Positions 4,526-5,568 of a stretch of 64,000 nucleotides of DNA are shown here, piece by piece. Made by a program: the position numbers and the translations under genes. The stretch's first letter is position 1. The number at the start of each line of letters is the position of its first letter. The notes under the pieces were generated by a model, which saw only the letters and a list, made by a program, of their open reading frames with translations, was not told the origin of the DNA and did no database searches. Source of the DNA: an uncultured Christensenella sp. (lineage in GTDB: Bacteria; Bacillota; Clostridia; Christensenellales; UBA3700); contig CAJUEA010000001.1 of assembly GCA_910584975.1 (NCBI GenBank), forward strand, positions 58,714 through 122,713, written 5' to 3'.

Positions 4526-4554
4526 TTGACTTTTTTATTGTTTTTATGTATACT
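4526..4554 (+). promoter_or_regulatory. Sigma-A promoter of cassette A (TTGACT-17 nt-TATACT)
   Basis: -35 at 4526-4531, 17-nt spacer, -10 at 4549-4554. Confidence 0.7.
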
Positions 4555-4560
4555 AATATT

Positions 4561-4673
4561 ATCCAATACAGTGATGCCCGACTAAATAGGGTATTTTGGT
4601 TGCTTAAACCAAATAAGCTGAAAAAGGGTGATGCCCCACCAATTAAAGAGTGGCGAGTATTAGGATACATTGA
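4561..4673 (+). ncRNA. Putative antitoxin-like leader RNA of cassette A (two diverged ~57-nt units)
   Basis: Lies between the promoter and an intrinsic terminator. GTGATGCCC boxes at 4571 and 4628. Hairpins TTTGGTT/AACCAAA (4595-4613) and CCAC/GTGG (4636-4653). The in-frame ORF across it lacks an RBS and has a promoter inside it. Confidence 0.45.
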
Positions 4674-4707
4674 TGCAGAAGCAAGTTACGCTTCTGCATT
4701 ATTTTTT
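4674..4707 (+). terminator. Intrinsic terminator between the leader RNA and toxin A
   Basis: 9-bp stem TGCAGAAGC/GCTTCTGCA with a 7-nt loop, followed by TTATTTTTT. It ends 4 nt before the RBS (GGAGA, 4711-4715) and 16 nt before the ATG of toxin A. Confidence 0.75.
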
Positions 4708-4722
4708 AATGGAGAACATAAA

Positions 4723-5568
4723 ATGAATAAAGAAAAATTAGAAATTGTATATTTAAAAAAATCTTATCAAGAGTATATTAAAAAATATTGTAAAGACGAC
4801 ATGAAGTTTGTATCGTCTGATAATAAGCAAAGGCCATTTGTAGGTGTTGTATTGCGTGGTATAAATGGATCTAACTATTTCGCACCTCTTACTAATGATG
4901 CAAGGACAACGGCATTTAATGAAGTTGATGTACATAATATTGGCAAAGGTAAATATGGGGCTTTAAATTTTAAGCAGATGTTGCCTGTTCCAGAAGATGC
5001 TCTTACTCATTTTGATATAAATTCTTTGCCTGAATGTAGCTATAAACGATTTCTGGTGAGCCAAGCAAGACACATTCAGCGAGAAAATAAAATCATAACA
5101 ACAAAAGCTGCAGAAGTTTATGTTCAGTGCTTATATAATAAATCAAACAGCTTATATGAACATTGTAATGATTTTTTATTATTGGAAGATAAGGCCAAAG
5201 ATTGGAAAGAATATCTACAACAGAAAAGCAAAAAAGAAGAGATCAAGATTGATGAGACGAAGAAAGCAATAAAATCGCAAAAACAAGAAACCCCAAAAAC
5301 AGCTAATAGTCAAGCTTATAGAGAAACAAAAGCATATAAAACTGTTGTTGAGAAATACGGACAACAAAAAGCAGATAAACTTGTAAATGATTTGCTTAAA
5401 ATTGAAATATCGAAGGCACAAGAAAAAGAAAAAATTACAACAAAAGACGGTAAAAACAATACAATATCTGTACCAAAAAATAAATTGCAAGGTAAAACTA
5501 CTGTTACAACGACTGTTGTAAAAACCACTGTTAAAGCACAACCTAAGACATCAGGTAGAGCAAAGTAA
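4723..5568 (+). CDS. ToxN/AbiQ-family type III toxin (endoribonuclease) with ~110-aa Lys/Thr-rich C-terminal extension
   Basis: RBS GGAGA sits 7 nt upstream of ATG 4723. Family-typical blocks: RPFVGVVLRGINGSNYFAPLT, GALNFKQMLPVP, SYKRFLVSQARHIQRENKIITTKAAEVY, CNDFLLLEDK. 281 aa, compared with ~170-180 aa for ToxN/AbiQ. Confidence 0.8.
   Translation: MNKEKLEIVYLKKSYQEYIKKYCKDDMKFVSSDNKQRPFVGVVLRGINGSNYFAPLTNDARTTAFNEVDVHNIGKGKYGALNFKQMLPVPEDALTHFDINSLPECSYKRFLVSQARHIQRENKIITTKAAEVYVQCLYNKSNSLYEHCNDFLLLEDKAKDWKEYLQQKSKKEEIKIDETKKAIKSQKQETPKTANSQAYRETKAYKTVVEKYGQQKADKLVNDLLKIEISKAQEKEKITTKDGKNNTISVPKNKLQGKTTVTTTVVKTTVKAQPKTSGRAK

Follow-up and report, generated by a model that had tools for sequence, protein, structure and literature searches.

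A probable type III toxin-antitoxin locus with an extended ToxN-family protein and a two-unit leader RNA in a conjugative element from a gut Clostridia bacterium

Introduction

Does a ToxN/AbiQ-family gene that follows two diverged RNA units in place of a repeat array, and whose product carries a long C-terminal extension, constitute a toxin-antitoxin system of type III? The question is raised by a cassette in a 64,000-nucleotide stretch of DNA from an uncultured Christensenella sp. (assembly GCA_910584975.1, contig CAJUEA010000001.1, positions 58,714 to 122,713; this stretch is hereinafter the window, and coordinates refer to it unless another locus is named). Knowledge of type III toxin-antitoxin systems rests mainly on a few loci, in which the antitoxin repeats are near-identical and the toxins compact. 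An earlier reading of the letters of the cassette (here called the original prediction) described a ToxN/AbiQ-type toxin gene with a noncanonical antitoxin RNA and a C-terminal extension, and we followed it up with profile searches, structure prediction, and a comparison of related loci. We conclude that the locus is probably a type III (ToxIN-family) toxin-antitoxin module carried by a conjugative element in a gut bacterium of the Clostridia. Rather than a system of a new kind, it is a variant of the ToxIN family whose toxin has a remodeled active site and a conserved C-terminal module.

Results and Discussion

The protein encoded at 4723..5568 on the forward strand (281 amino acids plus stop) belongs to the ToxN/AbiQ family, an assignment supported by sequence profiles, by matches to proteins of known structure, and by its predicted fold. 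The Pfam ToxN/AbiQ profile PF13958 matched residues 7 to 161 (4741-5205) as a full-length hit (profile positions 2 to 159 of 159; E value of 2.7e-31; 109 bits against a cutoff of 25), the PADLOC AbiQ profile matched at 9e-25, and the ToxN chains 4ato, 2xd0, and 7d8o in the PDB matched the sequence at 1e-10 to 1e-11. An AlphaFold2 (AF2) model built on 113 relatives has a core with pLDDT values mostly above 90, and a Foldseek search with this model recovered 4ato (5e-9), 2xd0, 7d8o, and AbiQ itself (4glk), with target-normalized TM-scores of 0.72 to 0.75. Membership in the CptIN or TenpIN families was considered and rejected; CptN (4rmo) was a distant fifth in the Foldseek results (E value of 0.027; target-normalized TM-score of 0.56), and the Pfam match is to ToxN. 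The four ToxN/AbiQ peptide blocks named in the original prediction are present in the translation, and its family assignment is upheld by each of the searches above. NCBI already labels one member of the clade of long ToxN proteins described below as a "ToxN/AbiQ family toxin." Between relatives, the ratio of nonsynonymous to synonymous substitution rates (dN/dS) is 0.10 to 0.19 for the ToxN domain and 0.09 to 0.30 for the C-terminal extension, and values this low indicate that both parts are functional.

The gene is preceded by the layout that the original prediction described, and all of its sequence statements about promoter, leader, terminator, and ribosome-binding site (RBS) held on rereading. 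A sigma-70-type promoter (TTGACT-17 nt-TATACT; 4526..4554, forward strand; 10 of 12 matches) predicts a transcript start near 4560-4561 and is followed by a noncoding leader of ~145 nt. An intrinsic terminator (4671..4707, forward strand) stands between the RNA and the toxin RBS; its 12-bp GC-containing stem occupies 4671-4701, with a 7-nt loop, and its T6 run occupies 4702-4707. The scanned stretch has four terminator-like sites versus 0.9 expected. The RBS, GGAG at 4711-4714, lies 8 nt 5' of the ATG at 4723, and the stop codon is at 5566-5568. A public protein collection instead holds a 340-amino-acid product starting at ATG 4546 (4546-5568). We reject this start as miscalled because ATG 4546 lies within the -10 region of the promoter and the relatives start at the equivalent of 4723; furthermore, the 59 additional N-terminal residues, whose codons would lie in the antitoxin RNA, have no conserved counterpart in relatives. 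The true product is therefore the protein of 281 amino acids.

Among 1.84 billion representative proteins scanned, 517 were ToxN relatives, only three of them scoring below 1e-30, and a small clade of 275- to 288-amino-acid proteins, 37 to 46% identical to the window toxin, has the entire architecture. Assemblies of Christensenellaceae and Clostridia, together with metagenomes, supplied loci of this long-ToxN clade, and the gene order in every one of them is a VirB4-like ATPase, ParA, a small ribbon-helix-helix (RHH) protein, the leader, and the long ToxN. A single promoter, together with a terminator between RNA and toxin, is found in the window, in all of these relatives, and in the ToxIN locus of pECA1039 from Pectobacterium atrosepticum. 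The promoters of the relatives read TTGACA-17-TATAAT (TACAAT in locus L039) and are spaced from the RNA as in the window, and each relative has its own terminator at the equivalent position, although the terminator sequences differ completely.

Alignment of these leaders supports the view that the window leader is a conserved structured RNA, in which a predicted closing helix surrounds two nonidentical ToxI-like units. The sequence GTGATGCCC at 4571 and 4628, 57 nt apart, marks the two units, which have in common just one 18-nt stretch that is 83% alike; the original prediction had described them as diverged and nonidentical, and comparison with the leaders of relatives bears this out. There are three copies of GTGATGCCC in the whole window versus 0.12 expected by chance. 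The third copy, at 16798, lies in unrelated sequence without cassette features and was dismissed as a cassette unit, as was a third partial unit at 4665 (ATACATTGATGC), a sequence that forms the terminator's 5' arm and lacks conservation among the relatives. Tandem Repeats Finder reported no array in the upstream regions, but it is too insensitive for diverged two-copy repeats and also missed the clear 2 × 58-nt repeat of the neighboring cassette B (described below). In L041 and L043, the two units are visibly more alike than in the window.

The minimum-free-energy (MFE) fold, together with counts of conserved pairs, gives the following predicted structure, all of it on the forward strand. The closing helix P1 pairs a 5' arm, UAUCCAAUAC (4560..4569), with a 3' arm, GUAUUAGGAUA (4657..4667), in which A4662 is bulged. 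Within each unit, a 3- to 4-bp stem (S1) closes a GCCC-bearing loop, and GCCC can pair with a downstream GGGC (S2) to give an H-type pseudoknot; the unit pattern in the aligned leaders is (A/G)G(C/U)-G(A/C)U-GCCC-N-(A/G)C(U/C)-A-rich-GGGC. In the proposed pseudoknot of unit 1 (4570..4592), S1 joins AGU (4570-4572) to ACU (4581-4583) and includes one compensatory U-A/C-G pair, S2 joins GCCC (4576-4579) to GGGU (4589-4592) and is invariant except for one G-U, and the loop between S1 and the 3' arm of S2 (4584-4588) is A-rich. In that of unit 2 (4627..4654), S1 joins GGUG (4627-4630) to CACC (4637-4640) and includes two compensatory pairs; relatives have GCCC/GGGC as S2 here, whereas in the window GUGGC replaces GGGC and S2 is a shifted 3-bp helix of GCC (4633-4635) and GGC (4652-4654). 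The spacing of the units is 34 nt in L011, L012, L013, and L039 and 57 to 58 nt in the window, L041, and L043, and only leaders of the latter spacing have an inserted segment with a small hairpin. In the window this linker hairpin is UUUGGUU-GCUUA-AACCAAA (4595..4613); just its GGU/ACC core is common to the leaders, and it shows no covariation. An A-rich single-stranded spacer, GAAAAAG (4620..4626), lies 5' of unit 2, and the same columns hold an A-rich stretch in all relatives (GAAAAAG, GAAAAAA, GAUAAUC, or UAUAAUC). Cleavage by known ToxN enzymes occurs at A-rich sites, GAAAU among them (PMC8860590), and the spacer is a candidate site for processing or binding by the toxin.

For the pair counts, six related leaders representing four to five independent types were aligned, with 3' partners slid by 1 to 3 columns as the control. 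Standard pairs were formed in 92.8% of cells in the named structure versus 29 to 46% with partners slid, and six compensatory (both-side) pairs were found, three in P1 and the others in the S1 stems of units 1 (one) and 2 (two), versus zero to one in the slid controls; the covariation score was matched by none of 500 shuffles. The arms of P1 read CCAAUAC/GUAUUAGG in the window, CCAAUUC/GAGUUGG in L041, ACAAGUC/GACUUGU in L011, and CCAAGUC/GGCUUGG in L039, and MFE folding gave P1 independently in all five leader types. The window leader folds with a z score of -4.4 relative to shuffles, and between closely related loci conservation is higher in the RNA core than in the toxin coding sequence (93 versus 80%, 99 versus 87%, and 85 versus 79%).

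How the leader compares with known antitoxins can be judged from pECA1039 (L054), where we read the ToxI array directly and found 5.5 copies of AGGTGATTTGCTACCTTTAAGTGCAGCTAGAAATTC, followed by the terminator and toxN. The two loci are alike in their operon order of promoter, RNA, terminator, and toxin, in allowing a GGU...ACC pairing as S1, with the 5' arm of S2 inside the loop that it closes (the ToxI pairing was deduced by inspecting the repeat), and in toxin domain and fold, which are also those of ToxIN from Bacillus thuringiensis and Escherichia coli and of lactococcal AbiQ/antiQ. They differ in that the pECA1039 RNA consists of 5.5 near-identical 36-nt repeats with free single-stranded tails, whereas that of the window has the two helix-enclosed units at 57-nt spacing with little beyond the 18-nt stretch in common, and in that the window toxin is ~30% identical to ToxN, is without Ser53 and Lys55, and has 116 extra residues. 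The original prediction also likened the start of unit 2 to the start of the ToxI repeat. The 15-mer that it gave does match the real pECA1039 repeat (AGGTGATTTGCTACC), and the unit 2 start (GGGTGATGCCCCACC) is identical to it at 10 of 15 positions, but the implied homology is not significant, as local alignment of ToxI with the leader did not score above chance (308 of 2,000 shuffles scored equally well). The likeness between leader and ToxI is one of pseudoknot topology and not of significant sequence similarity. A scan of the leader region against Rfam returned noise only, a negative that carries no weight because Rfam 15, run with permissive settings on pECA1039 (L054, 1573-2846), did not report the genuine ToxI array either. 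Rfam negatives are uninformative for type III antitoxins in general.

The leader is also less unusual than the original prediction suggested. In the part of their survey considered here, Blower et al. (2012; PMC3401426) give, for 67 toxIN loci, repeats of 31 to 62 nt in 1.9 to 5.6 copies and toxins of 70 to 288 amino acids, and the 57-nt repeat, ~2 copies, and 281-amino-acid toxin of the window all lie within these ranges; that part of the survey frames the RNAs as tandem repeats, and a closing helix, nonidentity of units, and a C-terminal module are not described in it. Among loci with short ToxN proteins, L014 and L037 have two repeat copies that are 76% alike, L058 has ~three copies that are 75 to 78% alike, and L056 has three copies that are 89% alike. 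The term "noncanonical" thus holds in a relative sense only; spacing and copy number are inside the published ranges, and other metagenomic ToxN loci have diverged repeats too. The distinctive features of the window leader are the strong divergence between its units, its variable linker, and the sequestration of its outer tails in P1. A helix that ties the ends of an antitoxin array together may be more general than the long-ToxN clade, given that in L056 a canonical ToxI-like array of three 35-nt repeats (1292-1432) lies beside a short 177-amino-acid ToxN and has a closing helix of ~16 bp around it (GCAGUACUCUUGUUAA/UUAACAAGAUACUUGC; fold z score of -3.2).

A parallel is found in TenpIN. A 2025 paper (PMC12283969) describes antitoxins of two nonidentical repeats, each of which can fold as an H-type pseudoknot with an A-rich stretch, together with toxins that are extended by structured segments at the N or C terminus, and it remarks that toxI and cptI repeats known to date are for the most part perfect. 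The window has both a nonidentical repeat pair with putative pseudoknots and a toxin extension in common with TenpIN, although TenpN is a different toxin family. This locus and those related to it provide a natural series of antitoxins that appear reduced to two nonidentical, helix-tied pseudoknots; this series bears on the question raised by TenpIN of whether both nonidentical repeats work, and it predicts a different complex geometry.

For RNA binding, inhibition, processing, toxicity, and stoichiometry, we infer the following scheme. A constitutive promoter would yield the ~145-nt leader RNA, most of it ending at the terminator, and read-through of the terminator would yield the toxin mRNA, so that the RNA would be in excess over the protein. 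The leader would fold into P1 around two nonidentical ToxI-like pseudoknots joined by the A-rich single-stranded spacer, bind the ToxN-domain protein, and keep the ribonuclease inactive. Should transcription stop, through loss of the element or shutoff by a phage, the RNA would decay, and the freed ribonuclease would then penalize element loss or abort infection. The single-stranded tails are where classical ToxN binds and, at A-rich sites, cuts (PMC8860590), but the outer tails of both units of the window leader are predicted to be locked in P1, and at most one processing site, the spacer, would therefore be exposed. Because the tails are sequestered in this way, the complex would be a closed one of one RNA (or two P1-held halves) and two proteins, in place of the 3:3 triangle of classical ToxIN.

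Several observations on the RNA and on the protein weigh against this interpretation. The covariation rests on just four to five independent sequences, and all 10 contigs that carry the exact toxin have an identical leader; within-lineage variation is thus zero, and these leaders are of no use for covariation. The S2 helices show no covariation, GCCC/GGGC being simply invariant, so that they are neither supported nor contradicted by it, and the window alone breaks two of the four aligned S2 pairs in unit 2, which leaves this S2 weakened. On the side of the protein, the catalytic center of E. coli ToxN comprises Lys33, Thr52, Ser53, and Lys55, and the substitutions Lys33Ala, Thr52Val, and Lys55Ala each abolish its toxicity (PMC8860590). 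The corresponding family motif is (T/S)-S-P-K-x-K-H, with Ser in 101 and Lys in 95 of the 113 aligned relatives; the window toxin reads T57-N58-D59-A60-R61-T62-T63 at these positions, and two of the four catalytic-center residues are replaced (Ser53 by Asn58 and Lys55 by Ala60). Neither Asn at the Ser53 position nor Ala at the Lys55 position recurs in any other protein among the 113 aligned relatives. Lys55 is missing from the whole long-ToxN clade, and a sister subclade (P0007 type) is also without Thr52 and Ser53. The original prediction was right about the family but missed the two replacements that this alignment brings out, and since catalytic residues are replaced, toxicity is a prediction that should not be assumed.

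These replacements lend some weight to a different view of the clade, which we consider unlikely, namely, that its ribonuclease chemistry has been lost or changed and that the protein is an RNA-binding factor on a ToxN fold. The two-pseudoknot RNA would then be a ligand or scaffold, the pair would serve maintenance or regulation of the element, and the C-terminal module would supply a new function. Such a view accommodates the absence of Ser53 and Lys55 in the window and of Thr52, Ser53, and Lys55 in the P0007 subclade, two of the corresponding substitutions (Lys55Ala and Thr52Val) being those that kill toxicity in E. coli ToxN (PMC8860590); it also accommodates RNA ends that are locked in P1 and leave little to process, and a protein that is nevertheless under strong purifying selection. 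However, the window toxin retains Thr57 at the Thr52 position and Arg37 at that of Lys33, for which Arg is the usual residue, as well as Tyr107 and Gln114 at the positions of the RNA-holding residues Tyr110 and Gln117 of ToxN, and Asn58 and Arg61 could take over from Ser53 and Lys55. An RNA excess set by the terminator and a strictly co-conserved pair of RNA and protein would likewise suit a toxin and be needless for a harmless binder, and the neighboring cassettes also encode RNase toxins. We continue to favor a ToxIN-type toxin; this clade is under strong selection despite its noncanonical catalytic motif, and it can reveal which residues are really needed.

The extension, described in the original prediction as ~110 Lys/Thr-rich residues that classical family members lack, is present, conserved, and under selection, although extensions as such are not rare among ToxN relatives; of the 163 relatives measured, 52 have at least 40 extra residues and 31 have at least 80. 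In the window toxin it comprises residues 166 to 281 (5218..5565, forward strand), as delimited by the AF2 model and the clade alignment, and its 116 residues include 27 Lys and 16 Thr. The AF2 model has a long helix (residues 151 to 186) that runs out of the core into the extension, then a helical module at residues 196 to 240 (5308-5442, forward strand; helices at 196-199, 203-212, and 214-240; pLDDT of ~94 for residues 201 to 220), and finally a basic, Lys/Thr-rich, disordered tail at residues 241 to 281 (5443-5565, forward strand). A module motif, YK(E/K)TxxYKxxVEKYGxxxADK(M/L), and a terminal GTVTTVT...KGK are conserved in the clade. Among the ToxN relatives examined, this module is confined to the long clade; it had no match better than an E value of 0.03 in Pfam, PHROG, or the PDB, and nothing in a large protein database reached the threshold with its 51-column profile.

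The module does recur within the elements themselves, where its hidden Markov model (HMM) was searched over all open reading frames (ORFs) of the window and of the fetched loci. By BLASTP, toxin residues 192 to 225 align with residues 226 to 259 of the next gene product, a PBECR4 protein (5869-6711), and the module HMM also matches a VapD-family protein of 183 to 188 amino acids that is encoded two genes 3' of ToxN in L011-L013, L039, and L044-L049. The N-terminal part of this protein is identified as VapD by PDB entry 9kan_A (1.4e-16), and the order of VapD domain, module, and basic tail is seen, for example, at L011:7243-7791, L012:7251-7793, and L039:5191-5742. A 51-amino-acid ORF in L041 (4630-4785; TYRQTVEKHGQKASEKMIDDAV...) is hardly more than the module standing alone, between the RHH gene and the ToxN leader. 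The module thus occurs at the C terminus of three unrelated RNase families (ToxN, PBECR4, and VapD) in the same slot of related elements, and the basic tails that follow it end in KGK, SKSK, GRAK, or PTK. From these sequence comparisons, the module may be an accessory part common to the RNase toxins of the element family, with a role in partner binding, localization, or export, and its presence on three unrelated toxins points to an undescribed common step such as targeting, partner binding, or export. The VapD gene is itself preceded by an uncharacterized ORF of 108 amino acids, which may be its partner.

Shared C-terminal signals are used by the Xanthomonas X-Tfe toxins (XVIPCD) and the Bartonella Beps (BID plus basic tail), both in Gram-negative systems. 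The elements studied here resemble these in having unrelated toxin domains, one common C-terminal module, and secretion genes nearby, and they differ in that the XVIPCD and BID systems are Gram-negative and the module has no detectable sequence relationship to theirs. It is conceivable, but quite improbable, that the extension is likewise a recognition signal for a type IV secretion system (T4SS) or conjugation machinery and that the ToxN, PBECR4, and VapD RNases are exported to recipient or rival cells. One module on three unrelated RNase families, always C-terminal and followed by a basic tail, would fit this idea, as would the adjoining VirB4-like ATPase gene and the discussion by Iyer et al. 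(2017) of effector transfer through T4SS and of PBECR RNases on T4SS elements. On the other hand, the module has no sequence similarity to described secretion signals or to Pfam, PDB, or PHROG families, no other proteins in the examined parts of the elements carried it, and the 51-amino-acid stand-alone copy in L041 is no less compatible with a module for binding or regulation. If export did occur, an RNA-neutralized type III toxin would be a transferable effector, and the RNA would be immunity on the donor side, with the recipient poisoned unless the incoming element establishes itself.

Genomic setting

Upstream of the cassette, the window encodes the VirB4-like ATPase (771-3452), ParA (3513-4283), and the RHH protein (4284-4478), whose gene directly abuts parA with no gap. 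A 19-nt palindrome, TAAAGACAAATTGTCTTTA, occurs before parA (3468-3486) and again after the toxin (5579-5597), and a half-site of the same palindrome is carried by ~nine tandem 13-nt iterons (TGTAAAGACAAAA) at 6716-6825, after cassette B; in L011, L012, and L039, too, the palindrome flanks the toxin cassette on both sides. To judge from their arrangement, the palindromes and iterons are probably the operator and centromere sites of a ParA/RHH partition system, which would place the toxin cassette, flanked by the partition genes and the centromere-like iterons, within the maintenance region of a conjugative element and make a role in element maintenance easy to test. The RHH protein was considered as a protein antitoxin and rejected in favor of a partition role, given that its gene abuts parA and that there are palindromes and iterons to go with it. 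It is very unlikely that the leader is a cis-acting attenuator tuning toxin expression, with a protein antitoxin elsewhere on the element or none at all: a structured leader followed by a terminator is a riboswitch or attenuator layout too, but no conserved candidate gene for a protein antitoxin adjoins the toxin (the RHH protein goes with the iterons), the units have ToxI-like pseudoknot topology, no conserved antiterminator pairing is found across relatives, whose terminators are entirely different, and no Rfam family matched, a result that says little, genuine ToxI being likewise undetected. With the ToxIN interpretation retained, the best leads from this locus are the module across RNase families, the changes in the catalytic site, and the predicted closed complex.

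PLSDB plasmids gave no near-identical DNA match to the locus, and the protein matches to the toxin there were to classical short ToxN only, at 28 to 32% identity. IMG/VR, scanned with the RNA pattern, with alignments of the long ToxN proteins and of the module, and with the PBECR4 protein, gave no matches either.

The gene immediately downstream of the toxin belongs to a second cassette, cassette B. It has a promoter with 12 of 12 matches (5638-5666), two tandem 58-nt repeats that are 88% alike and contain two hairpins each (5694-5809), a terminator (5824-5847), and a gene for a 280-amino-acid protein (5869-6711) that combines a PBECR4 (BECR-fold) nuclease (PF18813; 7.7e-15) with the C-terminal module of ToxN; its leader folds with a z score of -4.7. 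By its sequence organization, cassette B appears type III-like in layout, and its toxin family is not ToxN, CptN, or TenpN. In the literature we found no paper linking PBECR4 to an RNA antitoxin, and no relatives of the cassette were found in PLSDB or IMG/VR. Two Logan contigs, L004 and L005, have a single copy of the 58-nt repeat; this probably reflects assembly collapse and not real copy-number variation, because the run of L004 (ERR3199697) gives two copies in the ENA assembly L001.

Beyond cassette B and the iterons, there is another strong promoter (6870-6898; TTGACT-17-TATAAT, preceded by TG), with several small uncharacterized ORFs after it and then a UPF0236-family gene at 8460-9824. 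Downstream of this gene, the content differs between contigs L001 and L002, and the conserved block therefore probably ends there.

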